From contig JAIBAM010000003.1 in NCBI GenBank assembly GCA_019695175.1, forward strand, positions 35,033 to 99,032: DNA of 64,000 nucleotides. Direction: 5' to 3'. Made by a program: the position numbers and the translations under genes. This document shows positions 2,960-49,590 of the stretch, piece by piece (position 1 is the stretch's first letter; every line of letters begins with the position of its first letter). This DNA is from Bdellovibrionales bacterium (lineage in GTDB: Bacteria; Bdellovibrionota; Bdellovibrionia; Bdellovibrionales; UBA1609). Under the pieces are notes generated by a model. The model was not told the origin of the DNA. It made no database searches and saw only the letters and a list, made by a program, of their open reading frames with translations.

Positions 2960-4147
2960 CTAAATTAATGGGGCGATCTCTTTTTTCTTCTTCATCAGCC
3001 TCTGAATATAAAAAGAGATGAGAGTCCAAACCAAAAAATGGAATGGGACTAAAATCATCAGATTTTGCAAAATGGAAAATGAAAGCAAAATTCCGCTGCC
3101 TATCTCAAACAAAAACAAAGCGAGAATGGCAAAGGCTAACAAAAGATAATTATTTACACAAAAAAACTGTATAAAAAAATATATATTTGTAAGCAAAGCC
3201 ATATTGAGGCAGGTAAGGCCCACAATTTTTTCATCAAGTTCAAAAAAATAATATCCTAACTGCTTAAAAAGTACGAAAGAGAAAAATGCCACGGAAGATA
3301 ATGTCGAACTTAACAGGAGAGGTCGCCAAGGATAGAGACCTAACCATGTTGTCACTTTCTCCCCTTCTTTTGTGTTCGACATCTGTTGGGGTAACAACCA
3401 CTGCATAAATATTAAAAAACCAAAAAAGATGGATTTGTAAAGTAAGGAAATACGTGCAAAATGTCCAACATCTATGGGATTTTGTGTCTGGTGAACCACG
3501 ATTATATCCATTTGGGGAATAACCACAGAGGTTAATGCTAAAAGAGCTGTGGCAACAATCCGACGGGTTTGTAAACGATGAGTGATATCCGGATTCAACC
3601 AGTTTTTTGATCTTATAAGAATAGCAAGGGCAATCCACAACAATCCTGGACTGTAACTCAATGAAGTGGCCCAAGCGAATTTAAGGCCCTCATCATTCAC
3701 AGGATACTCCCACCCCACCAAAAAAAACTTGGCCAAGCCATTGATTAGGAGACCCACTCCTATCACTCCAAATGCCAATTGAATTTGTGACTGCCCCACA
3801 AACCAACTAAAAAGAATTCCTAAAATACTCCCAAGTAAACCCACCATAAAAAAAGAAGATTGGGGGAAAATCCAGGGAAGATATAAAGAGACCGCTCCAA
3901 TCAACAAAGTTAAAAGGCTCATTATTTTTAAATGGTTTTTATTTGCTATGAAAAAATTCGAACCCACTTGGGCAAAAAAGCCAATGGAAAGTGCAATGGA
4001 GAAATAAGCCATCCAACTGTTTAATTCGCCAAAATCAGCTAAATCCAAACGCGTCGATGCCCAAATTAAGAAAAAGTAATACAAAACTCCGGCAAGGATA
4101 TGGGCGATCGCAAAAAAAATTGCAGGAGCCACTTGAATTGCTCTCAA
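2960..4147 (-). CDS. polytopic inner-membrane protein, function unknown
   Basis: 395-aa ORF that is almost entirely hydrophobic helices (10 or more predicted by eye). No recognisable motif. Confidence 0.6.
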   Translation of the reverse strand: MRAIQVAPAIFFAIAHILAGVLYYFFLIWASTRLDLADFGELNSWMAYFSIALSIGFFAQVGSNFFIANKNHLKIMSLLTLLIGAVSLYLPWIFPQSSFFMVGLLGSILGILFSWFVGQSQIQLAFGVIGVGLLINGLAKFFLVGWEYPVNDEGLKFAWATSLSYSPGLLWIALAILIRSKNWLNPDITHRLQTRRIVATALLALTSVVIPQMDIIVVHQTQNPIDVGHFARISLLYKSIFFGFLIFMQWLLPQQMSNTKEGEKVTTWLGLYPWRPLLLSSTLSSVAFFSFVLFKQLGYYFFELDEKIVGLTCLNMALLTNIYFFIQFFCVNNYLLLAFAILALFLFEIGSGILLSFSILQNLMILVPFHFLVWTLISFYIQRLMKKKKEIAPLI

Positions 4148-4304
4148 CTTAAAACCCTTTTGTCACTTCAAGTTCCAACCTTTTTTATTGGATTTTCAAG
4201 CTTTTCAAAAAATAATATATCATATAGTTTATTTGATCATGCATAATTTAAACCGTCCTCATAAATCACCAACTCACATTAACTTTAAAAGTTGAGTAAT
4301 AAAT

Positions 4305-5687
4305 ATGGAACAACTCGATCCCCTTAAAAAAGCTCGTTCAATCAATATGGACTCTTCATTCTATGGCACCTTTGCTGAAATTGGCGCTGGACAAGAGGTT
4401 GCAAGATATTTTTTTCTCGCAGGACGAGCCTCCCAAACCGTGGCCAAATCCATTTCTGCCTACGATATGAAGGTCAGTGACTCGATCTATGGCAAGTCTA
4501 ATAGGTATGTCTGTCAGGAGCGAATTCTGCAGATGCTGGACCACGAATATGGACTTTTAGTAGAACGACTGAGTGAACAAAGAGGTGAAAAAACAAGATT
4601 TTTTGCCTTTGCTGACACTGTGGCCACAAGCAGTCACGGTGAACCTGATGCTCGTTGTCATGGATGGATGGGAATTCGTTATCAAACTTACTTCCAAGGT
4701 CCTCCCCATGAAATTATATTGCACATCCGATTGAAAGATCGATTCCGTTTGCAACAACAAGAGGCTTTAGGAATCCTTGGGGTAAATTTAATTCATTTAT
4801 CTTATTCCTTCCCTCGAACGCTGACCGAAATAGTAAAATGTTTAGTTCACAACCTTGGCCACGAAAGGTTGGAAATTAATTTTATCCGTTGCCAAGGTTC
4901 TGAAAATAGTTGGATCGACCATCGCCTCCTTAACTTAGAACTGGTTAAGCAAGGTGTGGCAGAAGCCGTTTTATTTGATGAAAAGGGTCACATTCAAAAT
5001 GCCTCAGACCTCTTATTCAGACAACCGGTTTTAGTTCAAAGAGGAACTTTTCGCCCGGTTACCAAAACCAATCTCACCTTGTTAGAAAAAGGAATGGAAC
5101 AGTTTCAAAGCCAATTTCAGCAAACTCCCCAAGTGCTCTTTGAGCTGACCATGCATGAATTGACCGCAGAGGGAGAACTAAGTCATAAGGATTTTTTAGA
5201 TCGGGTGGACACTTTATTAACCTTAGGACATAAAGTTCTTTTGACCCATTTTAAACTATCCTATCAAGTCAAAAGCTATCTCCGCTCTCACACCGATCAA
5301 GTCATTGGACTCATTGTAGGTGCCGATCAACTGGACCGACTTTTTGACTCTCAACATTACCAACATCTGCCCGGAGGAATTTTGGAGGGTTTTTCAAGAC
5401 TTTATGATGAAAAAACTAAGATATTAGTTTTCCCATTTAAATCGGAACAAATGTGTCTCACAGCCTCCACCTTTCATCCCACAGGTTCGCTGAAACATCT
5501 TTATCAATATTTTATACAACAAAAATTAATTACTGATATTTTAGGGTGTGAGGATGTGGACACGTCTATTCACTCTCAAGATGTGCGTTTAATGCTCAAA
5601 TCAGGAGATCCAAAATGGGAAGAATTGGTTCCACCCCCTGTTCGAGACCTTATCAAAAAACAAGGTTTATTTGGCGCAAAATTATAA
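4305..5687 (+). CDS. conserved-looking cytoplasmic protein of unknown function
   Basis: 460-aa ORF with no signal peptide. N-terminal block FYGTFAEIGAGQEVARYFF looks like a conserved motif, but I cannot assign it to a family. Its 3' end overlaps the only in-frame ATG of gspK. Confidence 0.6.
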   Translation: MEQLDPLKKARSINMDSSFYGTFAEIGAGQEVARYFFLAGRASQTVAKSISAYDMKVSDSIYGKSNRYVCQERILQMLDHEYGLLVERLSEQRGEKTRFFAFADTVATSSHGEPDARCHGWMGIRYQTYFQGPPHEIILHIRLKDRFRLQQQEALGILGVNLIHLSYSFPRTLTEIVKCLVHNLGHERLEINFIRCQGSENSWIDHRLLNLELVKQGVAEAVLFDEKGHIQNASDLLFRQPVLVQRGTFRPVTKTNLTLLEKGMEQFQSQFQQTPQVLFELTMHELTAEGELSHKDFLDRVDTLLTLGHKVLLTHFKLSYQVKSYLRSHTDQVIGLIVGADQLDRLFDSQHYQHLPGGILEGFSRLYDEKTKILVFPFKSEQMCLTASTFHPTGSLKHLYQYFIQQKLITDILGCEDVDTSIHSQDVRLMLKSGDPKWEELVPPPVRDLIKKQGLFGAKL

Positions 5688-13676: not shown

Positions 13677-13706
13677 TGGCCCCGTCCCCTCTTGGCAAAA
13701 AGGCTC
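13677..13706. repeat. 16-bp period tandem duplication (cgtcccctcttggc x2) just after fabH stop
   Basis: Direct reading: 13677-13690 and 13693-13706 are identical 14-mers. Confidence 0.8.
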
Positions 13707-13804
13707 AAAGTGGTGTATTCGTTCATCCAAGGTCTGTTTGAAAATCCTACCTCCCCATGAGGGCGGTTTACATAACCCAATCCGCTGAAAAAAAGAGCGC
13801 AAAA

Positions 13805-14176
13805 ATGAAATCAAAACCCCTTTTTGAAATTAGAAAAACTTTAACTTTTGAAGCTGCCCATAAGTTACCCTTCGTTCCCCCGGGCCATAAATGTGGGCGA
13901 CTCCATGGCCACAGTTTTCAGGTGACAGTCGTGGTCCGCGGACCACTGGATCCTGTGGGTTGGGTCATGGATTTCTCTGAAATTAAATCCAAACTTAAAC
14001 CCCTTATCGAGGAACTGGATCATCATTATTTAAATGAAATCCCTGGCTTGGAAAACCCCACTTCGGAAGTCCTAGCCCAATGGTTTTTCCAAAAGGCAAA
14101 AACCATTGTCAGTGAGGTCTACCAAGTTATCGTCAGTGAAACTTGCACCTCAGAGTGCATCTATCCCGTCTATTAA
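13805..14176 (+). CDS. queD: 6-carboxy-5,6,7,8-tetrahydropterin synthase (6-pyruvoyl-tetrahydropterin synthase family)
   Basis: [32 protein letters not shown]. Start taken at ATG 13805 (MKSKPLFEI) rather than at the listed 13757. Confidence 0.85.
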
Positions 14177-14220
14177 GCAGTTCTATGATAAGACGAAGGC
14201 GATTAAACCAATCAATACAA

Positions 14221-14305
14221 TATAGTGGACTCCAAAAACTGGACAGGCTGCTAAGCTATAAAAAGTATGGTTTTGTAGCCGTTCCAGTTCTTGGGGTCCA
14301 CTATA
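14221..14305. repeat. long imperfect inverted repeat (22-bp arms, 41-nt loop)
   Basis: tatagtggactccaaaaactgg (14221-14242) versus the reverse complement of ccagttcttggggtccactata (14284-14305): 20/22 matches. Confidence 0.7.
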
Positions 14306-14422
14306 CAAATCGTGACTATAGCACTTTATCAATATTCAGATTTTGTAAAAGCAACTCTTTGTTGGAGCTTCCCAAGCTAAAGGTTTAAGCGTGACTTGAA
14401 AAACATGTGACAACTCCACAAA

Positions 14423-14443
14423 CCCCCTTTCCAAAGAAGGGGG
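14423..14443 (-). terminator. putative rho-independent terminator downstream of hsp20
   Basis: ccccctt / aaggggg stem with a 7-nt loop. On the minus strand it is followed by tttgtgg. It lies 47 nt after the hsp20 stop. Confidence 0.45.
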
Positions 14444-14489
14444 CTGTGAAAAATTGTCCTGAACCCAAGATTTAACAACTAAACATATT

Positions 14490-14945
14490 TTATCTTATGG
14501 CGATTTGTCTTTTCGCTGAAGCTTCTTGTTTCGGAATACTTAAAGACAAAACTCCATTTTCGTACTTTGCTTCCACTTTTTCTCCGTCCACGGATTCTGG
14601 GAAAGTGAATGTTCTTAAAAAAGAACCGTAATACACTTCGGAGAAATGAGTTTTTTTATCTTTGTCTTCCCCTTCCACTTTGTCCTTACGTTCTCCAGAC
14701 ACAGTTAAGGTGTTGTCATGTAAATCCACTTTAATTTGATCTTTATTAAGACCCGGCAAATCAAATTTCATTAAATACATATTTTTTGTTTCGTGCACTT
14801 CCACATTGGGCTGGATCATATTTTTATCATTGCGTTGCAAACGATTTGAAAACAAATCATCAAAAAACCGCTCCACACCTCGAGGTTGCAAGCCAAATTC
14901 CCTAAAAGGATCCCAATTTTTTTGCCAAAGTTCTAAACGAGACAT
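14490..14945 (-). CDS. small heat-shock protein, Hsp20/alpha-crystallin family
   Basis: Alpha-crystallin domain: PNVEVHETKNMYLMKFDLPGL..LTVSGERK..SFLRTFTFPESVDGEKVEAKYENGVLSLSIPK. RBS AAGGAGGA. Confidence 0.9.
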   Translation of the reverse strand: MSRLELWQKNWDPFREFGLQPRGVERFFDDLFSNRLQRNDKNMIQPNVEVHETKNMYLMKFDLPGLNKDQIKVDLHDNTLTVSGERKDKVEGEDKDKKTHFSEVYYGSFLRTFTFPESVDGEKVEAKYENGVLSLSIPKQEASAKRQIAIR

Positions 14946-15133
14946 TTTGTCCTCCTTTATTATTTATTAATCTCAAACGTGACCGACAAACCAACTCTTG
15001 CTCTGTCGAAGACATCGAGATTTTGTTTCAAAGCACCAAAGAAACTTTGATTGCTTTTACATTTTTAATTTGTCCTTTTTAATCTGTAGGCTCTTTTCAT
15101 TTTGGCAAGAAAATCTATAAAAATTTTATTTTA

Positions 15134-15221
15134 CGAAGGTTCCTCGGTTATTGGTCGAAGGTTCCTTCATTATCTCTCGAAGGTTCCTCCGTTATCGGTC
15201 GAAGGAGCCTTTGCGGATGAC
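15134..15221. repeat. 22-bp tandem repeat x4 (cgaaggttcctcggttattggt and variants) in the hsp20/serS divergent intergenic region
   Basis: The units 15134-15155, 15156-15177, 15178-15199 and 15200-15221 all begin cgaagg. The first three share cgaaggttcct. Confidence 0.8.
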
Positions 15222-15411
15222 CGTTTCCGTCGTTTCCATTCGGATTACTCCTCTCCCTAAGACCCTAAGAAATGTTGGGTCCGTTTTGAAATCCTGCTGC
15301 TGCTGAAAATAATGAATGTAAGAACATTTGCCTTTCCCACCGGATGACAGTAATTTATACGATCACTGTACAGTTTTGAGACACAGAATCAACATTAAGA
15401 AAGATATTTTT

Positions 15412-16749
15412 ATGCATGATCTAAAATTACTAAATGAAAACCCCGCCCTTTTAGAAAAAGCTTTAGCCTCCCGTGGACAAGACAAAAATCTAGCCGCGCA
15501 AATTCATAAATTGAATGAGCGAAAAAAACAGGCCCTGCAACAAATGGAAACACTCCGTGCTGAACGCAATAAGGTGACCCAGGAAATTGCTAAGCTCAAA
15601 CGAAATAAAGATGCGACCTCTCAAGCGGAGGCAGAAAAATTCATGCAACAGTCACGAAAGCTCGGTGAAGATTTAAAAAAAATTGAGGACTCTTTACGCT
15701 CCTTAGAAAGCGAGTTCACCCATCAGGCCCTAACCCTACCCAATATTCCCCACTCTTCAGTACCCACGGGATCCTCCAGCGAAGACAACACCGTGGTAAG
15801 ACACTGGGGTGAACCCGCCACATTCAACTTTCAAGTCAAAGACCATGTTTCCTTAGGCGAAGATTTGGGTCTTTTGGATTTTGAACGGGCTGGTAAAATT
15901 TCTGGAGCCCGGTTCTCACTTTATTTTGGAGCTGCAGCGGCTTTGGAACGGGCACTGATTCAGTTTATGTTGGACTTGCACACGAAGAACCATGGATATA
16001 TGGAAGTGATCCCACCTTTTATGGTAAATAGAAATAGTTTAATTGGCACGGGAAATCTTCCCAAGTTTGAAGAAGATTTATTCAAAACAAATAATAATGA
16101 CAAAGAATTATTTATGATTCCCACCGCAGAGGTCCCTTTAACAAATATTTACAGTGAAGAAATTCTTTCTCACAAAACTCTCCCAGCCTACTTTACTGCC
16201 TACACTCCTTGTTTCCGCAGTGAAGCCGGTTCCTATGGAAAAGATGTTCGAGGACTTATTCGCCAGCATCAATTTCAAAAGGTTGAGTTGGTTAAAATTG
16301 TCACCCCCGAGACCTCCTACGAAGAACACGAAAAAATGGTGGCCGACGCAGAAAAAGTATTACAACTGCTTGAACTGCCCTATCGAGTGGTCCTCCTATG
16401 CACAGGGGATATGGGATTTTCTGCGGCGAAAACCTACGACCTGGAAGTTTGGCTGCCTTCCCAACAAAACTACCGCGAAATTTCTTCTTGCTCCAACTGT
16501 GAAGACTTTCAAGCGCGACGAGCTCAAATTCGCTACCGTCCAGGACCAGATGAAAAACCTCGTTTTGTTCACACCCTTAATGGCTCTGGGTTGGCCGTAG
16601 GTCGAACTCTTATTGCGATTATGGAAAATTATCAAACCGAATCCGGCACCATTCGCATCCCCACTGTGTTGGATCGATATCTGGAAGGGTCGCCCTATTT
16701 CATTCGGGGAACCAAGGGTCAACTGGAAATGCAACAACGACTGAAGTAA
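15412..16749 (+). CDS. serS: seryl-tRNA synthetase
   Basis: [11 protein letters not shown].. coiled-coil arm, then class II motifs: [44 protein letters not shown]. Start taken at ATG 15412. The listed 15328 is a TTG extension. Confidence 0.93.
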
Positions 16750-16815
16750 TGTGTGATAGTAAAATTTGCAGAATGAATTAAGTAATGAGTGACAGTAAGA
16801 TTTGCAGAATGAATT
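16744..16815. repeat. 36-bp tandem duplication spanning the serS stop codon
   Basis: aagtaatgtgtgatagtaaaatttgcagaatgaatt (16744-16779) and aagtaatgagtgacagtaagatttgcagaatgaatt (16780-16815), 33/36 identical. Copy 1 contains the serS AAG TAA. Confidence 0.9.
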
Positions 16816-16826
16816 CTACGCCTTCG

Positions 16827-16908
16827 TTTTAATTTACTCTTACTTTTTAATTTACTCTTACTTTTTAGTTTACTCTTTATTTTTAGTTTGCTCTTACTTT
16901 TTAAAAAA
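16827..16908. repeat. about 18-bp tandem repeat x4-5 (ttttaatttactcttac family)
   Basis: Direct reading of consecutive units with 1-3 substitutions each. Confidence 0.8.
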
Positions 16909-16912
16909 TACT

Positions 16913-17009
16913 GCTTCTATGTTTAGACATTTTTAATACCGCTTCGATCTTTAGATATTTTTAATGTCGCTTTGGTTTAATGACGCTTCGATCTTTAGAC
17001 TTTTTTAAG
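16913..17009. repeat. 28-bp repeat family (gcttcgatctttagatatttttaatgtc), 3 full copies plus 1 partial
   Basis: Units at 16913-16940 and 16941-16968, a partial unit at 16969-16984, and a further unit at 16985-17009. Confidence 0.75.
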
Positions 17010-17273
17010 TTCAATTTCTATATTTTTTCAAACCTAATTTGTCTTTCACTTTTAAGTCTGGTTTGCCTTTCAATTCTGATAAGTTAAGACTGATTTCCTC
17101 AATTTATTTAAACAGGTTAGTATCCAGGGTTCTATAGAGTTTCACCAGCAAAGGCGGTGCTCTTCAAACGCCCTCTCATTAGAGGTTTGATATTCTTTGC
17201 GTTCTGTGTTTAAGTTTTTTTTCTAAAGGCATCCACATTTTTGATAATAATATCCTGCTGTCTCCGCCACAGT

Positions 17274-17319
17274 TAACTGTGACTTCCTTACGCGACTAAC
17301 TGTGACTTCCTTACGCGAC
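17274..17319. repeat. perfect 23-bp tandem duplication spanning the stop codon of the cyclase gene
   Basis: taactgtgacttccttacgcgac occurs at 17274-17296 and 17297-17319. On the minus strand each copy reads GTCGCGTAA.., that is Val-Ala-stop. Confidence 0.9.
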
Positions 17320-19446
17320 TTTACCCATGGAAATTTCCGCACGCTTTTGTACCATAACATTATTATGGGATAAAAAAGGCTCAATCAGTAATGGAATTTG
17401 TTGCAAGTAAGGATTGGCTTTAAAGTAAACCGGATCCCGATCCCTGTGGTAATCATACAAATAACTTAAAACATAAATTCCACTGGCGACAAAAAAGGGA
17501 TTCTCACTATACAAAAATTGTTTTAACTGATGAAACACTTGGCTTTGTAAATCTCGCCGACCTTGAGCCAAAAGCACATCTGCCACCACCCGATTGGTGG
17601 GATGACTGAGCAGTTCATGAAAGGAATAGGTCTCTGGACTTAATTCATCCAAAGTTAAAACCGAATTCCCACGAACTCTTGGATCTTGATGTTTTAATCC
17701 CAATTCCAGAAGTGCCCTTAGTGAATCACTCAACCCCAAAGATTTAAGTAAATGGGCACCCAATGCAATCAGCGAAGATAAAACCACATTCCAATTCTCA
17801 TCGTTGGGTCTAGTTTCTGTCCACTCTATCAATTTTGTTAACAGTCTTTCATAGCTTTGAGCCAAAGCCGAGGGCACTTCCTCCACTTCAAAGTGACGCA
17901 GTATTTTATCAATTTTAATAAAAAAATCTGGTCCCACTAAACCGATTTGATCTCCTAAGAACTCCATTAAAGTCACCAGATCTGCATCAGAGCGAAACCA
18001 CTTAATCACTGCCAGATTTTTTTGCTCCAAAAAAATCTGAATAGGAATAAAATCCTTAATTTCAACAATTTCTGTTTGCCCTTGAAAACCCTTAAACGCC
18101 ACTTGAAAAGTTTTATATTCTTGTGCCAGACTGCGCACGCCCACATAATCATCGCTATAAATGGCCAAAATATTTTGTTCTTTTTCGTCAATTTTTCCGA
18201 GCATCCGCACCGACTCAATCAAAGGTAAACCTGCAAAAGCATACCCTGTATCCAATTCAATAAAACGCAAACGCCCCCGGGACATGGCTGCCTTCACCAC
18301 AAAGGGAACCCCTTGCCCACGAAGCTCCTGGTCCATTTCTTGAGCCACGGCAAATAAACTGCGCACACAGGAAACCGCCTTTTCCAACCCCGCATCCTCA
18401 GTCGGTAAATGAGCCGCTATGAACTCCTCCCCTGTGCTCCTCGTATCTCCCTCCACTTTAATGTGAAAAACAATTTCATCCCCCACATATTGATATATGT
18501 GTCCTTCGTAACGACGGATCACTTCAGCTGCTTTTTTAAAGTACCGATTCAATGTTGAGGTCACAAACTCAGTTTTTCGCTCTAAAAACATCTGTGTATA
18601 ACCATTCACATCCAATCGAATCACGTAAGCATCAAATTGAAACGGGGCTTTTGTTCCCAGTAAAAGTTCATTTCGAACTGCTGGACTGAGGGATGCCGCA
18701 TAAGTTTGATTGGTTAACTTTAAATGTTCCTGGGATTTTTCAAATTGGTCCGTGGCTGCCAGTAAAATTTGGGATTCTTTCGATCTGGCTTTTATATCTG
18801 CCATGGGTTTACGATCGCGACTCTTAAGAATACGGGTCAAATCCAAAATATCTTTTAAAATTAAGTAAAGTAAAATGGATAAAAAAAGTGTCACTAAAGT
18901 GAAATCCTGAATGAGATCCCATTTTTGGTAGAGCACAGCCTTGGCCGCAAATAAACTTCCGTTCATATTTACGCCCATACTGAGCTTAAGATTCCCCTCT
19001 TGAACAGCCTTACCCAAAGAGGTTGATCCTGGCTGATCCACTCTAAAAAACCCCAAAGGGAAATCCAATCGGGCAATATCTTCCTTCGTCCCACCTGGGT
19101 TGTAAAAATCCACCACTTCGCTGGATATTCCAGCTCCGCTCTCTGATCCACCCCCAACCTGAGATTGTGAACGGACTCGCGTCAGGAGATAAAAATCAAA
19201 ATCCCTCGCTTCCTTGGCCTTCTCCAAATTACGTGACAAAATATCCGTCTGACCTTGAGCCATTAATGGAGCTGCAACAAACAAATGATATTCAATGGCC
19301 TTCAGTCGACGTTGATTGTCCTCAATCACCATTTGTTCCATTTTATTAAAATACTGAGTTACAGAAATGGAAACATAACCCAACCAAAAAATCCCCACTG
19401 CCAAAACTAAAATGGGTTTACGATTTTTGACTCCCATTGTTTTCAT
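17311..19446 (-). CDS. membrane-bound class III adenylate/guanylate cyclase-like protein with periplasmic sensor region and C-terminal HEAT-like repeats
   Basis: Two TM segments (ILVLAVGIFWLGYVSISV and FTLVTLFLSILLYLIL). Cyclase core IRLDVNGYTQMF..YEGHIYQYVGDEIVFH has both metal-binding Asp contexts. The C-terminus has KHQDPRVRGNSVL-type HEAT/PBS-like repeats. Confidence 0.6.
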   Translation of the reverse strand: MKTMGVKNRKPILVLAVGIFWLGYVSISVTQYFNKMEQMVIEDNQRRLKAIEYHLFVAAPLMAQGQTDILSRNLEKAKEARDFDFYLLTRVRSQSQVGGGSESGAGISSEVVDFYNPGGTKEDIARLDFPLGFFRVDQPGSTSLGKAVQEGNLKLSMGVNMNGSLFAAKAVLYQKWDLIQDFTLVTLFLSILLYLILKDILDLTRILKSRDRKPMADIKARSKESQILLAATDQFEKSQEHLKLTNQTYAASLSPAVRNELLLGTKAPFQFDAYVIRLDVNGYTQMFLERKTEFVTSTLNRYFKKAAEVIRRYEGHIYQYVGDEIVFHIKVEGDTRSTGEEFIAAHLPTEDAGLEKAVSCVRSLFAVAQEMDQELRGQGVPFVVKAAMSRGRLRFIELDTGYAFAGLPLIESVRMLGKIDEKEQNILAIYSDDYVGVRSLAQEYKTFQVAFKGFQGQTEIVEIKDFIPIQIFLEQKNLAVIKWFRSDADLVTLMEFLGDQIGLVGPDFFIKIDKILRHFEVEEVPSALAQSYERLLTKLIEWTETRPNDENWNVVLSSLIALGAHLLKSLGLSDSLRALLELGLKHQDPRVRGNSVLTLDELSPETYSFHELLSHPTNRVVADVLLAQGRRDLQSQVFHQLKQFLYSENPFFVASGIYVLSYLYDYHRDRDPVYFKANPYLQQIPLLIEPFLSHNNVMVQKRAEISMGKVA

Positions 19447-19469
19447 TGTTTCCCTTGTTCCTGTTTTTC

Positions 19470-21791
19470 TTAGAAACCCTGCGTGTTATTTTCCCTGAAT
19501 TTATAAATAAAATTTCCATCAGGACTTATGACATAGGTGTGTTTTGCTCCACTTCTGTCCCCCAAACTAGGAGCATTGGCTTCGGATTCATTCCCTCTAA
19601 ATTTAATAATTCTAATTTGATTCGCACTCAGAATTTTACTGAATGCTTCGGCCTGTTCCTTCACTCTTTTTTCCCAATCTCTTCTTCCCGAATTTCGATT
19701 GATTTGACTGTCTCCCATCCGAGTCGACATAAACACATTGATTTGCCCAACATCCATGCCTTGCAAACCCATGATTTTTCCCGAAGTCTCTGGTTGGGAC
19801 TTAAGCAAACTTACAATTCCCCTCCCCCACGTCGTAACTTTTTTCAACTCCTCCTCGGCTGATAGAGTCAATGCTGCCGGATTCCTTAGTTTATTGTCCT
19901 TCGTTTGTAAAACAACACCAGGGCCGGTGCCACCTCCAGCAGTCGGTCTATTAGCGACTTGAACTAAGCCCCCACCTGCTGATGGAGCTGAGTTTGGAGC
20001 CGCAGCAACAGCAGGATTGGTTTGAGCTCCAGTACTCTGGGCTCTCACTCCGGGTCCTCCCGAAACTCCTGACTTTGAACTTTTTCCTAATTGTTGGACG
20101 ACTTCAACCGGTGGCTGGTTACCAGGTGTCGCCGGTGTCAGACCTGTTAGAGTTGTCTGCGCAACCGCACCGCTTACAGTAGGTGTCTGTGCAAGTGGAG
20201 CACCAGGAGTTGACGAACCCTCAGCTCCAGTTGGCGGATCACTTTGGATGTCCAATGGACTTCGACGGCTTAATCCCATTGGCCCCGAATGAACAGCCAC
20301 GGCTTTTGATCTCAGAGGATCAGCAGCATATCCCCCCAAACTTCTGCGATCTGAACCTGACCCAGTATGTACTGCAGTGTCCCCAGGGGGTGATGATAAA
20401 TTTTGACTACCCACATTCGCCCTATAAGCATCTGTTGCTGCATCTGCTGCTGGAAGAGCTAAGCGAGCCGCCGCCTGAACGATCCCCGGTGAATTCCAGA
20501 CACTTTCCGCCACTGCAGTTACAGCCTTGCCTTGATCAGCTAAGGCAAAGTTTAAGCTTTGCGGCAATTCCCTGAACCCCTCAGGCAAAGCTTGAACTGA
20601 AGCCGGCTCCCTTACACCCCCGCTTTCGCGTCTAAGAACACTAGTCACAGCCACTGGCCCCGTAGGTCCAGAATTAGCCACATCTGTAGCCGCAGCGCTT
20701 GCACCTGTAACTACCTTTTGAGGCAACGGAACTTGTGTTACTTGGGCCGTTCTATCTATTGGCCTAGGAGCTGCGGGCTTTGGGGTTGAGGGTAGTTGGC
20801 CAACTACTTTATGATAATCTTCAGGATTTATAATACACTTCCCCATTTCACTGGTAAGTGTTTGAGTCAATTTTTCATTTACGGAACCCGTCGAACAAGC
20901 ATTTTCAAGGTAAGGATCCCGTTCGCTTACAGAAGAACATATCCGACCCAAAAGCCCATGAACTAATTCATGAGTTAAAGTAGCTACGAGCTCCTCTTCC
21001 CCTTGTGCATTTAGAAAACGCCCTGAGGGATCCGTGTACAATTGGATCCTTAGCGGTTCCCCTGAAGTGCAAGAGGCTTTTTTTCGAAAAATTTGAGTAG
21101 GAGTACATTGAAGCACCTGATCCGGATGACGGGCTAATCGACCTGTTAGGGCCTCCACAAGATTTTTTATCAACTGCGGAAGTTCTGTTTTCCCTAACCC
21201 CGCAAAATAACCATTGAACACTTTCATCAAACAGTCCTTACCGTTGCCTGATGAAATGATATCAATTAGTATAGGAAGATTTTTTTTTATAGGGAAATCT
21301 AATTTAGGACAGGCCAAGGAAGACATTTGCGCTGATCCAATAGCCTGGGGAACTATGGGCTCTACCCTTCTTAACGGCCCACAAACAACATCAGGTGGAG
21401 ATTTAGGAGCTTCGTTACTTAAGGAACTGCCGTCGGAATACTGCATTTCATTGTTTAATTTGAACAACCGGGCCTGACTCTGCTTGGTCTCATATTCCAA
21501 CCGCATCCGATGGTGGGGATAGGTTCTTTCCAAAACAAAATACTGCAGCTCCCCCAGTTTCATCCCCATGGTGATCAAATCCCGTCCCTGGGCTAATTGC
21601 CAAAAATCCCACCGACCATCATGGTCCAAATCCAACCGAATCTCGGTGGAGCTATCCCTTACAATAACGAGCTGATCGACGACCCGGTCCCCATTGCCAT
21701 CTTTGACTAAAAATTGCGGACCAGCAAATGCCTGATGGCAAGTAAAACAAAATACTAAGAAATGAATAAATCTAAAACTCCGCCCCACCAT
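19470..21791 (-). CDS. large secreted protein with HExxH metalloprotease-like motif and long Pro/Ala/Gly/Ser-rich region
   Basis: Signal peptide MVGRSFRFIHFLVFCFTCHQAFA (ATG 21791; the listed 21806 is a TTG). THELVHGLLG motif. About 300 aa of low-complexity A/G/P/S/T sequence in a locally G+C-rich stretch. Confidence 0.5.
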   Translation of the reverse strand: MVGRSFRFIHFLVFCFTCHQAFAGPQFLVKDGNGDRVVDQLVIVRDSSTEIRLDLDHDGRWDFWQLAQGRDLITMGMKLGELQYFVLERTYPHHRMRLEYETKQSQARLFKLNNEMQYSDGSSLSNEAPKSPPDVVCGPLRRVEPIVPQAIGSAQMSSLACPKLDFPIKKNLPILIDIISSGNGKDCLMKVFNGYFAGLGKTELPQLIKNLVEALTGRLARHPDQVLQCTPTQIFRKKASCTSGEPLRIQLYTDPSGRFLNAQGEEELVATLTHELVHGLLGRICSSVSERDPYLENACSTGSVNEKLTQTLTSEMGKCIINPEDYHKVVGQLPSTPKPAAPRPIDRTAQVTQVPLPQKVVTGASAAATDVANSGPTGPVAVTSVLRRESGGVREPASVQALPEGFRELPQSLNFALADQGKAVTAVAESVWNSPGIVQAAARLALPAADAATDAYRANVGSQNLSSPPGDTAVHTGSGSDRRSLGGYAADPLRSKAVAVHSGPMGLSRRSPLDIQSDPPTGAEGSSTPGAPLAQTPTVSGAVAQTTLTGLTPATPGNQPPVEVVQQLGKSSKSGVSGGPGVRAQSTGAQTNPAVAAAPNSAPSAGGGLVQVANRPTAGGGTGPGVVLQTKDNKLRNPAALTLSAEEELKKVTTWGRGIVSLLKSQPETSGKIMGLQGMDVGQINVFMSTRMGDSQINRNSGRRDWEKRVKEQAEAFSKILSANQIRIIKFRGNESEANAPSLGDRSGAKHTYVISPDGNFIYKFRENNTQGF

Positions 21792-21856
21792 GGGTGGATC
21801 GGCCAAAAAATATATCTATTTAAGAGTTAGATAATTTGTCAAATTTCTAAACAAAC

Positions 21857-23807: not shown

Positions 23808-23987
23808 CTAACTTGATGGCTGATTTCGCTTTGATAGTTTGATAGATAGAGGCACAACAACATCACCTAATCGTTGCGTGGACTCAATGACCGCTACAAA
23901 TCCCAAGCCTTTTTCAAGGTCCTTGGGTTCGGTCGCCACTGACGATGATTGAACTTTGGTTAAAATAAAATTCTGTCGAGTAGTCAT
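23808..23987 (-). CDS. 59-aa ORF with strong RBS (below the ORF-track cutoff), unknown function, possibly 5' fragment of a frameshifted gene
   Basis: AAGGAG lies 8 nt upstream of ATG 23987. Product MTTRQNFILTKVQSSSVATEPKDLEKGLGFVAVIESTQRLGDVVVPLSIKLSKRNQPSS. Protein-like sequence continues in another frame (AIKLDAGEQLLEVEVFNIGGPNGGKVQ). Confidence 0.3.
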   Translation of the reverse strand: MTTRQNFILTKVQSSSVATEPKDLEKGLGFVAVIESTQRLGDVVVPLSIKLSKRNQPSS

Positions 23988-24946
23988 ATAATTTTCTCCT
24001 TTAAAATAAGGTAAGAAGATTTATCTCCCTCACAGAACCGCACTTGCGGTTTTCCCGCATACGGCTCTTCGTTAATGTTCACGTTACTTTGCGAAGCTCG
24101 TATAAAAATCATGGTGGATTTTCGCTGTCGGAAGCGGTGTCTTTTAAGGTAGGTCGTAAAGCTTTCCCAGTTAAAACTCTTCTTCTGACTGCGCCGATTG
24201 AGCCACTTCAGAATCCCACTCTGGATATACCGTTTTGGCATACTCAATCAGGCTCATCATTTCGTTGTGTTTCATTACGGTTGGTCGTTGTGTTTCATTA
24301 CGGCTGGATAATTTAATTTTTTCTTGCCACGAATATAAATCCCCATTGCTGGGTTGTGTTTCATTCGGCCTCTATCAATCATAAACTTGAAAACACCACG
24401 AATGAACTTGAGGTTGTTCACTCTCGTGGCCGATTTCACTTTTTCTTCTTCGTTCTTTTTTAGTTCTTCGCCGTTAATGAAAGTTTCAACTTGTTCAGTG
24501 GTGAAATCGCTCAACCATTTGTTGTTCCAAATGGCGGTGTGCTTTTTCAAAGTGCTAATGGTGGTGTCCATCGTATTGAAAGAAATTTTTTGTCTTTGTA
24601 GCGAGCTTCTAATCTTCCAAAGTATTCTTCACAGGCATTGCCCCAAGTCGCATCGCCCTCGTGCTTCTGTAAGAAAGCAAGTTGTGATAATTCTTCCATC
24701 AATTCATTTCGCTTTTGAATGGCGAGGAGTAGGCTCGTGATATTTCTTGCCCGTTTAAAAATTTGCTTGGATGGCTTATTCGCATCAACTTTTATTCTAC
24801 GATACACTCAAAACATCATAAATATTTTGAGTGGGTTGCTTAAAAATACGTTCTCGCTCTTTCAGCCAGCCATCCGCATTTTTCTCGTAAACTCCAATTT
24901 TCTTTTTCTTGGAGCTTTTGTTTTCGTTGTTTTGGTCGTCGCTCAT
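23984..24946 (-). pseudogene. tyrosine recombinase/phage-type integrase, frameshifted and 3'-truncated
   Basis: The N-terminal reading MSDDQNNENKSSKKKKIGVYEKNADGWLKERERIF (ATG 24946) continues in shifted frames through listed ORFs 24547..24807 and 24275..24571 (TTEQVETFI..TRVNNLKFIRGVFKFMIDRGRMKHNPA, a SAM-like core-binding domain). A 23-bp tandem duplication at 24262-24307 introduces a stop. No R..HxxR..Y catalytic domain follows. Confidence 0.65.
24262..24307. repeat. 23-bp tandem duplication inside the integrase pseudogene
   Basis: tcgttgtgtttcattacggttgg (24262-24284) and tcgttgtgtttcattacggctgg (24285-24307), 22/23 identical. The length is not a multiple of 3. Confidence 0.9.
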
Positions 24947-25107
24947 AGTGGCCTCGCTCGTCTCTTCTCATGAAAATCCCAAATAAAATTGAGGTCTAAC
25001 CCCAGAAAATGAGCCGTGATTTTTTTGGCGATAAGCCCATTGAAAGGCCGTGTTTCTATCTCAAACTTTTTAAAACTCATCCCTCTGAACTCACAATCAA
25101 TTCCACT

Positions 25108-25206
25108 CCTCATGTGGCTCCTTCCAGTCCTCATGTGGCTCCTTCCAGTCCTCATGTGGCTCCTTCCAGTCCTCATGTGGCTCCTTCCAGTCCTCATGTG
25201 GCTCCT
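25108..25206. repeat. 21-bp perfect tandem repeat, 4 full copies plus a 15-nt fifth (cctcatgtggctccttccagt)
   Basis: Units start at 25108, 25129, 25150, 25171 and 25192. The repeat is open in frame on both strands (PHVAPSS on +, MRTGRSH on -). Confidence 0.95.
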
Positions 25207-25453: not shown

Positions 25454-25744
25454 ATGTCTACTGCAAGAAAACGAAAAGATAATAACATCAATATAAGAGC
25501 GGCTACGAATGAAAAAGAGCTGATAAAAAAAGCTGCTGACATGAGCGGCTTGGATACTAGCACGTTTATGCTCTTCCACTCCGTTGAAGCTGCTAAGAAA
25601 ACCATTTCGCAGACCGATGTTTTTGTATTATCACGCAGAGACTCCGAACTTTTTGTCAATGCTCTATTGAATCCTCCTGCTCCAAACGAAGCTCTTAAGC
25701 GAGCCTTTAAGCGTCACAAAGAAATTTTTGGCAACAAGGTTTAG
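25454..25744 (+). CDS. DUF1778 (TacA-like, ribbon-helix-helix) antitoxin
   Basis: NINIRAATNEKELIKKAADMSGLDTSTFMLFHSVEAAKKTI..VFVLSRRDSELFVNALLNPPAPNEALKRAF matches the DUF1778 layout. It sits immediately upstream of the GNAT toxin. Confidence 0.8.
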   Translation: MSTARKRKDNNINIRAATNEKELIKKAADMSGLDTSTFMLFHSVEAAKKTISQTDVFVLSRRDSELFVNALLNPPAPNEALKRAFKRHKEIFGNKV

Positions 25745-25752
25745 GTATCAAA

Positions 25753-26247
25753 TTGGCATTAGAGTTTCGCACCTTAGACAAAACATTTGATAGAAATTCT
25801 TTTGATTGTGGAATCGAAGAGTTAAACAGTTATCTGAAAAGGGAAGCCCGTCAGCAGCAGGGTCATGGATTTAACGTGACCCTCGTTTTAGTTGATACAA
25901 CCAATCCTACAAAAATCCTCGGCTATTATTCTATGATGAGTTCTGGAATGAAATTGGAATCACTTCCACCCGAAATAGCCAAGAAAATTCCAAAACATCC
26001 AATTCCTGCTGTACGCATTGGTAGACTAGCACGAGACCTATCAACAAAGGGACAGGACATCAGTGAACTTCTCATGGCAAACGCCCTTGAAAGAATTAAA
26101 CGTGTGTCTACTGAGATAGGTGTGTACTGTGTGATTGTAAATTCAAAAAATGAAGCTGCAAAAAACTTTTATTTAAAATATGGATTCATTGAATTTGCAG
26201 ACGCTCCAATGAGTCTGTTTCTTCCGATTGCCGCTTTCCCAGAATAA
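25753..26247 (+). CDS. GNAT-family acetyltransferase toxin (TacT/AtaT-like)
   Basis: N-terminus ..FDRNSFDCGIEELNSYLKREARQQQ is characteristic of TacT-type toxins. GNAT core IGRLARD..GVYCVIVNSKNEAAKNFYLKYGF. TTG start 9 nt after the antitoxin stop. Confidence 0.75.
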   Translation: MALEFRTLDKTFDRNSFDCGIEELNSYLKREARQQQGHGFNVTLVLVDTTNPTKILGYYSMMSSGMKLESLPPEIAKKIPKHPIPAVRIGRLARDLSTKGQDISELLMANALERIKRVSTEIGVYCVIVNSKNEAAKNFYLKYGFIEFADAPMSLFLPIAAFPE

Positions 26248-29403: not shown

Positions 29404-29440
29404 TGCATTGAACATTAGATAATTTCAAATCTGGACTTTT

Positions 29441-29470
29441 GTTCTGAATTGTTCTGAATTGTTCTGAATT
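29441..29470. repeat. 10-bp tandem repeat x3 (gttctgaatt)
   Basis: Direct reading: three perfect copies. Confidence 0.9.
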
Positions 29471-29651
29471 GAATCTCATAAAATATATCAAACAAATATC
29501 GTAAATAAAAAAAACATTGTCATATTCTCTACAGTTCAAATAAAAATATTTTTTATTTAAACTTCGTGAATTGTATTTGATTATTTCAAACCCCACCTTA
29601 GTCCATGGCAACCATTTTGCTTGAGCAAGGAATAGGGGGGTTCAAATCATC

Positions 29652-32675: not shown

Positions 32676-33821
32676 TTACTTGATTCTCACTGAACCCGAT
32701 TGGGTTCGCACCACAACTGAACCCGCAACAGAGCCTTGCATCCGACCTTTTAGAATTTTTTGTCCCGCCACCACATCTTTTTGCAAGTATCCAGGGCCCA
32801 ACAGAAAACCGCTGACTGAGGCCAAGGACAGATAGGCCCCTGATTGGGGCAACTCCAAATTAATGGGACCTGTTTGTGAAGTTAATCTGACTTCATTGGC
32901 GTTAAAAATACGGCCCAACACAGCGCTCGCATCTGTGACCCCCCTCACATCGCCATTAAAATCTTCCAATTTGACTGGGCCCCTTTGCGAGTAAAACTCC
33001 AATCGACCCTTGCCTTTTTGCACCAGAGTGGACCCTTTGTAATTAAAGAGCTCAAAAGCTCCTTCGCACCGAAGCAACTGCAGCTCGCCCGAGAAATTTT
33101 CGCTGGTAATGTTCCCCTTTAGATCTTCCAAAATAATTTTGCGAGCAAAGGTCTCCACCTTTTGTCGCCCGGTTCGAGATTTTACTAAAATTTCTGTGTC
33201 TTGCCCAAACAACTGCAAATCACCTGCCCCGCCCTTAACTGCTATACTACCCTCTTGCAAAGTTATTTTTGCTGGCGCCGACCAATCCATTAATTCGACT
33301 TTACCCCTGCGCCAAACCATATCCAACGGCAGAGGAGGAGAAGAAATTTCCAAATGGAACTGGGGAGCCCCGCCGTTTTTTAAAATCTCAAGCCATAACT
33401 CTTTCGAATTTGGACTTTGCATGTAGAGTTCGATTCCACGATCTGTACGTTGAGCGGAAAAATTCCAATCTTCCAAAGTCTGACGTAAGATCGAGGAGGC
33501 GTGAGCGATGATTTCTTGACGAACCCTGAGCGTTAATTGTCCTGTGTTGCTGGATGTTACTTTAACCTGACCATCAAAACCACGAATGAAAATGTGATCA
33601 TTTTTTTTAACTTCAATGGCCACTGGTTTGTACTCAAAAATTCCATTTTGTGATTTTGTTTGTGATTTTGCCGCGGTGACCCCAGATGGGATCACCACCA
33701 TAACTAAAATTACTATTTTAAAAAAAATGAATATCCGAAAAATAATCAATATTCTAAAAATAAAAAAATAGAGGCCTTGAAGACCTTTGATCCAAACCAT
33801 TCTTAATGCCTCCCTGAACAT
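32676..33821 (-). CDS. secreted/membrane-anchored protein with repetitive beta-strand segments (DUF4097-adhesin-like, tentative)
   Basis: N-terminal hydrophobic anchor. Recurrent G(D/S)(V/L)x(L/V) strand motifs (GDLQLFG, GELQLLR, GDVRGV, GSVRIK). Confidence 0.35.
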   Translation of the reverse strand: MFREALRMVWIKGLQGLYFFIFRILIIFRIFIFFKIVILVMVVIPSGVTAAKSQTKSQNGIFEYKPVAIEVKKNDHIFIRGFDGQVKVTSSNTGQLTLRVRQEIIAHASSILRQTLEDWNFSAQRTDRGIELYMQSPNSKELWLEILKNGGAPQFHLEISSPPLPLDMVWRRGKVELMDWSAPAKITLQEGSIAVKGGAGDLQLFGQDTEILVKSRTGRQKVETFARKIILEDLKGNITSENFSGELQLLRCEGAFELFNYKGSTLVQKGKGRLEFYSQRGPVKLEDFNGDVRGVTDASAVLGRIFNANEVRLTSQTGPINLELPQSGAYLSLASVSGFLLGPGYLQKDVVAGQKILKGRMQGSVAGSVVVRTQSGSVRIK

Positions 33822-37830: not shown

Positions 37831-37921
37831 CGATTCTCTCGTTTGAAGTTGCAGGAGATTTTTTGCTCCTAAACCGCTGATCCTTACTTAAATTCCCGAC
37901 CCATACTTGAACTTCCGACCC

Positions 37922-38641
37922 TTAAGCCCCGGTCATGGTGAAAGCGTCTTCATTTTCAACTGAAACTAGGGGGGCTGGCCAAAACCAATTTAATAATGGG
38001 TCCAATGCAATCGTATCAACTACCTCAACTGCAGAGGATCCAACTTCTTGCACCAAGTTTTTTATATGACTTTGCCCTGGACCAAGGACTGCAATTTTTT
38101 TCACACTGGGTTCATTCACCAACCCTCGAATCAATCGACGAAAGTCCATTTCTTTAGGAATCAATGAATGATACTCACCATTGGGTTCAAGCGAAAGCAA
38201 ACCAAATTCTGCCAAGGAAATCCCAGACAAAATGGGTAAAGCCCCTTTATTCAACTCAACTTTAACTGAACCGTTAGCAAGCGCTGAGCTGGAACGAACC
38301 ATGTTGTCAAACGATTGTTGCCCAGAGATCACTTTCAAAGGAGCATCTCCATTGACCAAGCCTGCGACCAACCTTGGCATCTTAAAAGAACGAAGGAATC
38401 TTTGTAACAATCCCATTTGCACCACAGCAGTGACTAAGTTTTTCATTCTTAAATTGCCTAAAAAAGTCTGATCATCCGAGGAAATAAAATTAGCCAAATC
38501 CAATGAATTTTCTGAGGTCTGATCCCAAACTTCTTGGGCTTCACGGATGCGTTGATAAACTTCTGGAATCCGCACCACATTGCTGCGAACTTCGTTGAAC
38601 TCCATAGAATTGACTGTGCTTACAACTAAGGCATCAAACAT
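37922..38641 (-). CDS. hypothetical protein, possible degenerate FabD-like acyltransferase fold lacking the GHSxG nucleophile
   Basis: 239-aa ORF. By eye, ..LVTAVVQMGLLQRFLRSFKMPRLVAGLVNGDAPLKVISGQQSFDNMVRSS parallels the FabD ..QPAL..L...G..P..vaGHSLGE..AL.aAG.lsf.d region. GLVNGD stands in place of GHSLGE. Confidence 0.3.
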   Translation of the reverse strand: MFDALVVSTVNSMEFNEVRSNVVRIPEVYQRIREAQEVWDQTSENSLDLANFISSDDQTFLGNLRMKNLVTAVVQMGLLQRFLRSFKMPRLVAGLVNGDAPLKVISGQQSFDNMVRSSSALANGSVKVELNKGALPILSGISLAEFGLLSLEPNGEYHSLIPKEMDFRRLIRGLVNEPSVKKIAVLGPGQSHIKNLVQEVGSSAVEVVDTIALDPLLNWFWPAPLVSVENEDAFTMTGA

Positions 38642-48303: not shown

Positions 48304-48331
48304 TCAGTCATCAGTCATCAGTCATCAGTCA
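48304..48331. repeat. 7-bp tandem repeat x4 (tcagtca)
   Basis: Direct reading: four perfect copies, 92 nt left of the IS boundary. Confidence 0.9.
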
Positions 48332-48422
48332 TTTTAATTAACCTGGAATTTTATCTCCACTATTCTTCTTCTCAGTTTTTTTATTTTATCTGGGCTTTCA
48401 TCCGAGTCTTTACGAGCCAACG

Positions 48423-49518: not shown

Positions 49519-49590
49519 ATGATGAGAACTTAAACATGGAAAATGATGAGAACTTAAACATGGAAAATGATAAGAGTTTAAACATGGAAA
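49519..49590. repeat. 24-bp tandem repeat x3 spanning the candidate start codons of the nuclease gene
   Basis: atgatgagaacttaaacatggaaa (49519-49542 and 49543-49566, identical) and atgataagagtttaaacatggaaa (49567-49590). Confidence 0.9.

Follow-up and report, generated by a model that had tools for sequence, protein, structure and literature searches.

The seryl-tRNA synthetase gene serS (15412-16749, plus strand) and a gene for a 711-aa cyclase-like protein (17311-19446, minus strand) converge on a spacer of 561 bp (16750-17310) in the window, by which we mean the whole 64-kb stretch of DNA analysed. The serS product matches TIGR00414 (E 4.9e-166) and the Pfam families tRNA-synt_2b and Seryl_tRNA_N. 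Its open reading frame runs from 15328 to 16749 with TTG as the opening codon at 15328; since the family alignment starts at residue 29, the ATG at 15412 is the likely start. The 711-aa protein is 100% identical to K1X29_02930, annotated as a hypothetical protein. The earlier note had called it a cyclase, a name that can be kept in a weaker form. Residues 277-342 match the class III cyclase CyaB (3r5g) weakly with E 0.0015, and Bdellovibrio homologues with about 33% identity carry the name adenylate cyclase in their source records, whereas Pfam and NCBIfam gave no match even at E <= 10. From these similarities 'cyclase-like' appears to be a fair label for the gene, and nothing beyond it.

The spacer contains four tandem arrays, which were identified with TRF and find_repeats and by direct reading. 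The first (16744-16815; TRF score 123, 91% matches) consists of two copies of a 36-bp unit with 33/36 identity between them, and the first 6 nt of the first copy (16744-16749) are the terminal AAG TAA of serS. The second (16817-16904) has an 18-bp unit, for which TRF reports 4.3 copies at 16827-16904 (score 121, 88%) and unit alignment adds a more diverged fifth copy at 16817-16834. The third (16907-17006) has a 28-bp unit, scored by TRF as 2.4 copies at 16907-16972 (score 90), and direct reading finds full copies from 16907, 16935 and 16979 together with a 16-nt truncated copy from 16963. The fourth (17274-17320; TRF score 94) is made up of 2.0 copies of a 23-bp unit that are 100% identical. 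The gene-proximal copy includes the GTC GCG TAA of the minus-strand gene at 17319-17311, and a second TTACGCGAC lies at 17288-17296, 23 nt downstream of the gene's own copy. The rest of the spacer (17007-17267) is unrepeated. All four arrays described in the earlier note were therefore recovered where it had placed them, including the 28-bp family with three full copies and a partial one, and the stops of serS and the cyclase-like gene do lie within the 36-bp and 23-bp arrays respectively.

A core, TAC.GCTTCG...TTTTAA, may be common to the 18-bp and 28-bp units, and the truncated 16-nt copy of the 28-bp unit resembles the short form, although in such T-rich sequence these likenesses are only suggestive. 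An open reading frame of 44 aa with LIYSYF repeats also crosses this region (16802-16936); it starts at a TTG codon with no ribosome-binding site evident, and we took it as a by-product of a T-rich unit with a length divisible by three.

Repeats take up 53% of the spacer, and about 200 of its 561 bases have been added by duplication. In 1000 dinucleotide-preserving shuffles of 16744-17320 (TRF score at least 50, period at least 10) we found a mean of 0.016 arrays and a maximum of one, compared with the four observed. Since the shuffled spacers almost never yield even a single array, chance is excluded as the origin of the four. The identities between copies, as given by TRF, range from 78-84% through 91% up to 100%, and this spread indicates several duplications at different times rather than one burst.

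Further repeats are scattered over the window. TRF found a 22-bp unit in 3.3 copies in the divergent hsp20/serS spacer (15134-15205), a 23-bp unit in two copies (24262-24307) among short fragmentary open reading frames that adjoin a group II intron match, five near perfect copies of a 21-bp unit inside a doubtful 118-aa open reading frame (25101-25205) and an intergenic 10-bp unit in 3.3 copies (29439-29471). An 18-bp unit in 2.8 copies (33714-33763) is in frame with the hydrophobic N-terminus of the minus-strand gene at 32676-33821, and a 19-bp unit in 1.9 copies (37885-37921) lies in a 91-bp convergent spacer and ends one base short of the stop codon of the minus-strand gene at 37922-38641. 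The heptamer TCAGTCA occurs 4.1 times in another convergent spacer (48304-48332). Three copies of a 24-bp unit (49519-49590, plus strand) repeat, in frame, what is probably the start codon and the leader of a gene for an S1/P1-nuclease-like protein, and a 21-bp unit in two copies (55103-55144, minus strand) duplicates SSLGLSN in frame in the N-terminal tail of HMG-CoA reductase. Of the additional sites listed in the earlier note, those at 15134, 24262, 25101, 29439, 48304, 49519 and 55103 were all found by TRF; the one at 13677 is an 11-nt direct repeat with 5 nt between its copies and falls under the TRF threshold. Shuffles of the whole window gave 0.34 arrays against 12 observed. No extra copy of any unit, whether from the spacer or from the other sites, was found in the 64-kb window at up to 20% mismatch. 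Each unit is thus confined to its own site within the window, and the repeats are duplications of local sequence.

We also looked for related loci. With the cyclase-like protein as query, an exact-protein look-up was empty and a genome scan gave no match, while the protein database returned the source protein itself followed by a next-best homologue at 49% identity. For serS, scans of 185,579 species genomes and a metagenome collection gave matches of at best 59-60% identity. No close relative was found by protein look-up, in the protein database or in the genome and metagenome scans. On the contigs that carry cyclase homologues at 48-49% identity, a convergent PTPS gene, or another gene, follows 0-15 bp past the cyclase gene. 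The window has its own PTPS gene at 13757-14176, 66-68% identical to the copies of these relatives, and here hsp20 and serS sit between PTPS and the cyclase-like gene. Because these two genes are interposed in this genome, unlike in the relatives, the junction between serS and the cyclase-like gene is specific to the lineage, young and without conserved content. A tblastn search of the spacer for pseudogene remnants of the genes that flank the cyclase gene in the relatives (DUF454, AMP-binding and PTPS) gave no signal.

The earlier note had read the duplicated stop codons as spare 3' ends for both genes. The duplicated stops are present, but they cannot serve as back-ups. Read-through of the serS TAA reaches a TGA after eight codons, ahead of the second AAG TAA, and read-through of the cyclase-like gene reaches a TAG after four codons, while the 23-nt period shifts the second stop out of frame. 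Since another stop is reached first in both frames, the 'spare' stops are unusable, and we rejected a role as back-up stop codons on the reading frames of both genes.

The arrays might instead be functional cis-elements, either 3'-UTR or termination signals for both genes or protein-binding arrays of the iteron or operator type. The regular 18-bp and 28-bp units carry T-runs directly 3' of serS, where a termination signal must exist; no canonical terminator was found elsewhere near either gene end, and the 22-bp array of the hsp20/serS promoter region is of a similar kind. However, none of the repeats contains a terminator-like hairpin with a G+C-rich stem and a T-run. The sole terminator-like candidate in the spacer (17172-17185, plus strand) has a weak 5-bp stem and lies outside the repeats, and this one site compares with 0.5 in shuffles. 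Predicted RNA folding was no better than that of shuffled sequences for either the serS 3' region (z = +0.47) or the cyclase-like 3' region (z = +0.08), and a search of the spacer against Rfam gave no match even at E <= 1. On the hairpin scan, folding z-scores and Rfam search we rejected a structured RNA or a terminator, and the terminator or 3'-UTR role that had been suggested for the repeats is not supported. No unit is used again at another site of the window, the relatives manage with just 0-15 bp after their cyclase gene, and the copies are diverging (78-91% identity) with no conserved core beyond the T-runs. Taking both sides together, we regard a cis-acting function as very unlikely, and from the absence of such signals we infer that the repeats are neutral.

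We then asked whether gene ends are favoured as sites of duplication. In our model random duplications persist only where no protein is altered, and for each observed unit length we calculated the share of protein-neutral window positions at which a repeat would span a stop codon. Among the 10 non-coding repeats of the window this model expects 1.05-1.20 stop-spanning cases and two were observed (P(>=2) = 0.28-0.34). Stop-spanning repeats made up 3/35 of the non-coding or boundary repeats across 1.55 Mb of controls, 164 loci that are unrelated or only distantly related. The proposal that the duplications often lie at gene boundaries is hence not supported, the number that span a stop being at neutral expectation. 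A tandem duplication keeps the sequence intact through its first copy, so that one spanning a stop codon leaves the protein unchanged, and its neutrality equals that of a duplication lying wholly between genes. On this reading the duplicate 3' ends arose as a neutral by-product rather than as a device. The case illustrates that a stop-spanning tandem duplication is invisible to the protein, and 'spare gene ends' are to be expected wherever short duplications occur.

Inside genes the repeats behave differently. All four repeats within open reading frames of the window have periods divisible by three (21, 18, 24 and 21), against 2/10 of the non-coding repeats (Fisher P = 0.015), and 50/60 of the in-gene repeats in the controls also have such periods. 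This period bias is a clear mark of a selection filter.

The earlier note knew of no described element that would match these repeats, but bacterial minisatellites do. Intergenic tandem repeats with units of 10-100 bp have been surveyed across prokaryotes as minisatellites, VNTRs or 'satellites', and the divisible-by-three rule for repeats inside genes has already been described (PMC6749651; introduction of PMC4679880). The arrays of the spacer share with bacterial minisatellites and VNTRs (MLVA loci) their head-to-tail units (periods of 36, 18, 28 and 23; 2-4.3 copies by TRF), their occurrence above chance, and their mostly unique families born in place, which are non-coding where the period is not divisible by three and in frame inside genes. 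The defining trait of VNTRs is copy-number polymorphism, whereas the present arrays are known from one genome. In the survey of Subirana & Messeguer (2019, PMC6749651), which attributes prokaryotic satellites to DNA replication anomalies, a satellite requires at least four repeats of 10-200 nt of regular length; only the 18-bp array (4.3-5 copies) reaches that number, the others having 2-3.6 copies. Four unrelated families within 561 bp are also denser than is usual for minisatellites.

Other families of repeated DNA fit less well. REP/BIME elements and MITEs also occur as short repeats in spacers, frequently where genes converge, but they are palindromic or carry terminal inverted repeats and have many dispersed copies, whereas the arrays here are direct, non-palindromic and confined to single sites. 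In a CRISPR array the repeats are separated by unique spacers, and here the units abut directly with a spacing equal to the unit length. With neither dispersed copies in the 64-kb window nor inverted-repeat arms bracketing the arrays, REP/BIME elements, MITEs and CRISPR arrays are ruled out within the window. The cyanobacterial STRR are a family of heptamer direct repeats. TAACTGA heptamer repeats have been described in Beggiatoaceae, Cyanobacteria and Bacteroidetes, where one 7-nt sequence is reused widely, with 169 sets in one draft genome, and 13 of the sets overlap with an upstream gene at its stop codon (PMC4679880). These families resemble the present arrays as short intergenic tandem units, and in both cases the spacers of relatives at the same place are shorter and repeat-free (PMC4679880). 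They differ in that one 7-nt unit occurs at many sites, while our units are of 18-36 nt and each belongs to a single site. In the window only the array at 48304 is similar, its unit TCAGTCA (reverse complement TGACTGA) being one base away from TAACTGA, and it occurs once.

The repeats might also be an artefact of assembly or the scars of mobile elements (MITEs, REP/BIME elements or target-site duplications), given that the source is a metagenome-assembled genome and that 6.5 kb away there is a decayed mobile region containing the remnant of a group II intron. Arrays of 46-100 bp with diverged copies should, however, be within the length that short reads span, and a collapse during assembly would be expected to delete copies, not to create them. 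As for mobile elements, the arrays lack terminal inverted repeats, their units have no dispersed copies in the window, the spacer holds no pseudogene remnant, and the units run head-to-tail with nothing inserted between them. We give this explanation next to no credence.

Collectively these observations favour a model, which we consider probable, where short tandem duplications of local sequence piled up in the spacer independently of one another. They would be bacterial minisatellites born of replication errors, for instance slippage or a switch of template when a fork stalls, and would have been retained because they landed where the DNA was least constrained. A 3'-to-3' spacer has no promoter or ribosome-binding site to preserve. 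As the spacer would exist in this lineage only, the duplications are likely to have accumulated in a young, unconstrained junction.

The density of repeats raises the question of whether low constraint is enough. All sequence sets were counted in the same way (TRF score at least 50, period at least 10). The window has 12 arrays in 64 kb, or 18.8 per 100 kb, compared with 6.3 per 100 kb in 160 control loci, 4.4 in the control loci matched for GC content (35-45%) and 10.7 in those below 35% GC. The nearest relatives and two Bdellovibrionales MAG loci have two arrays in 108 kb. With its 12 arrays the window is thus about four times as dense as GC-matched control sequence (P = 4e-5), and when the four arrays of the spacer are counted as one locus the resulting 9 loci still give P = 0.0025 against the GC-matched rate. 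The excess is mainly non-coding, the 64 kb of the window holding 8 such arrays and the controls about 2.3 per 100 kb. The raised density that had been noticed in this sample was therefore confirmed, and relaxed constraint alone does not explain the non-coding excess. Four families in one 561-bp spacer are also more than expected if families were scattered uniformly across the 7.8 kb of intergenic sequence (P = 0.002-0.004), which requires some local hotspot or a special tolerance. Convergent spacers form 18% of the intergenic DNA yet hold 6/10 non-coding repeat families (P = 0.004); counted by locus (3/7) the bias is not significant (P = 0.12).

These figures speak for a different emphasis, in which a lineage-specific process makes tandem duplications of 16-36 bp without microhomology at an unusually high rate, and the spacer is a true mutational hotspot. 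Candidate causes would be template switching triggered by hairpins, errors in the processing of Okazaki-fragment flaps, or stalled forks at converging transcription units. This overlaps with the pile-up model, the difference being that the cause is placed in mutation bias. The density relative to GC-matched controls and to the relatives, its concentration in non-coding repeats, the four families in one spacer (P about 0.003) and the over-representation of convergent spacers all speak for it. Against it, the sample is 64 kb of one genome, low-GC sequence is generally richer in repeats (as in the controls below 35% GC), some unrelated control loci are equally dense (one has 9 arrays in 17 kb), and the convergent-spacer bias is not significant on counting by locus. 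The earlier note had proposed a lineage-specific mutational process; its mutational origin and raised density stand, and its enrichment at gene ends does not.

The boundaries of the duplications bear on the same question. End microhomology is 1 nt for the duplication at 17274, 1 nt for that at 55103 and 0 nt for that at 24262, and the 36-bp duplication at 16744 shows an upstream likeness of only 5 of 8 bases. With no more than 1 nt of microhomology at the two youngest duplications, simple homology-guided slippage fails to explain their birth, a point in favour of a hotspot. Microhomology-mediated duplication begins with two short direct repeats and leaves a partial third copy. Such tandem duplications have been described in fission yeast as two-copy events, tens of bases long, that replication errors both create and undo, much like those seen here (bioRxiv 10.1101/2020.03.03.972455; PMC8639346). 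A flanking direct repeat of several nucleotides is absent from our cases, the 23-bp and 21-bp duplications having 1 nt and that at 24262 none.

A perfect 14-nt palindrome, CACAGTTAACTGTG (17268-17281), is centred on the outer boundary of the 23-bp duplication, whereas a stem of at least 7 within 3 nt of a random position has a background frequency of 0.8%. Of the 26 repeat boundaries, 6 have a small palindrome, whereas 8% of random positions do (P = 0.016). Both observations count towards a hotspot; several of the boundary 'palindromes', however, are plain A/T runs such as TTTTTAAAAA. The overall excess of palindromes at boundaries is weak and a hint only. For the 23-bp duplication itself, the youngest, the palindrome and the single nucleotide of microhomology would fit a stalled fork or a template switch at a hairpin better than slippage guided by homology, again as a hint. 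Weighing all of this, we think it unlikely that the spacer is a true hotspot, and we retain the pile-up of independent duplications as the better account.

The significance of the locus beyond this genome is small, and the raised non-coding minisatellite density is the only point worth following. If that density holds genome-wide, the organism would be among the few satellite-rich bacteria, and its arrays could provide VNTR markers for tracking it in metagenomes. A bolder proposal, which we hold to be somewhat less likely again than the hotspot, is that this deep-branching Bdellovibrionales lineage has an unusually active homology-independent duplication process that seeds copies of 16-36 bp at small hairpins or converging transcription units. 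Rounds of local duplication would then lengthen convergent spacers, and copied gene starts and ends would be frequent enough to feed new N- and C-terminal extensions, for which the in-frame 24-bp start-codon triplication at 49519 would be an example.

The genes that occupy the position following the cyclase gene, the 711-aa cyclase-like gene at 17311-19446 on the minus strand, vary between the lineages compared, namely the window and the relatives' contigs (L161-L164) that carry 48-49% homologues of this gene. In the relatives the cyclase gene either faces a convergent PTPS directly or has one unrelated gene between itself and PTPS; in the window hsp20 and serS lie between PTPS and the cyclase gene (13757-17310). 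On the upstream side, the cyclase-like gene and the adjoining 778-aa gene (together 17311-21806, minus strand) appear to be a conserved pair. The 778-aa gene has no Pfam or NCBIfam match. The matching upstream position in the relatives is occupied by an unannotated gene of 615-642 aa, the end of which overlaps or abuts the start of the cyclase gene, and from position only we infer that the 778-aa protein is homologous to the products of these genes. The cyclase-like gene and its upstream neighbor look like a conserved operon. Further upstream, a trypsin-like gene is present in two of three relatives.

The SerS protein (445 aa) has a C-terminal tail around 10-18 residues longer than that in nine of the ten homologues compared, which are 420-429 aa in length. 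The tail sequence (16690-16749) is itself non-repetitive. One unrelated contig, from a metagenome (L084), carries an 18-bp repeat in 2.1 copies at 4737-4773, which was assigned to the stop-spanning class, the stop codon being that of a long ORF. This ORF is probably serS, since the repeat begins 4 bases past the point where the serS match (3480-4733) ends, and if so it provides an independent case of a stop-spanning duplication. At the other end of serS, a 466-bp spacer separates this gene from the divergently oriented hsp20 (14490-14945, minus strand) and contains a 22-bp unit (CGAAGGTTCCTCCGTTATCGGT) in 3.3 copies at 15134-15205. This array might be operator-like and serve the heat-shock gene, or it might be just one more minisatellite.

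A repeat also lies over the probable start of a gene. At 49519-49590, a 24-bp unit is present in three copies and duplicates, in frame, the leader and probable start codon of a gene that resembles S1/P1 nucleases. The third repeated ATG is where a typical signal peptide (MEIIKSKKASGFRFILLFVPLALQ...) starts, and hence the two upstream copies offer alternative in-frame start sites, from which the protein would be 8 or 16 residues longer.

The only Rfam match to reach the gathering threshold within the 64-kb window is RF00029 (group II intron domains V/VI), at 23975-24069 on the minus strand (54.6 bits, E 5.8e-8). The match is flanked by ORF fragments (23984-24807). No intact reverse-transcriptase ORF was found upstream of it on the minus strand, where the ORFs are all short (86-98 aa). 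Judged by eye, one of them looks like the C-terminus of an intron protein and another looks like the N-terminus of an integrase. The match is probably a truncated intron within a decayed mobile region. The tandem repeats at 24262 and 25101 both lie inside this region. The latter is a near-perfect array of five 21-bp units (25101-25205) that is open in two plus-strand frames, giving putative ORFs with SSPHVAP and LPVLMWL repeats, and in one minus-strand frame, giving a putative ORF with MRTGRSH repeats.

Adjoining the same region is a 96-aa small ORF followed immediately by a 164-aa GNAT acetyltransferase ORF (25454-26247), the latter matching Acetyltransf_10 (E 1.6e-5). The layout of this pair resembles that of a TacA/TacT-type toxin-antitoxin pair.

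Finally, a convergent spacer contains the heptamer TCAGTCA in 4.1 copies (48304-48332), an array that occurs once within the window. Its reverse complement, TGACTGA, differs by one base from the TAACTGA direct repeats known from Beggiatoaceae, Cyanobacteria and Bacteroidetes (PMC4679880).
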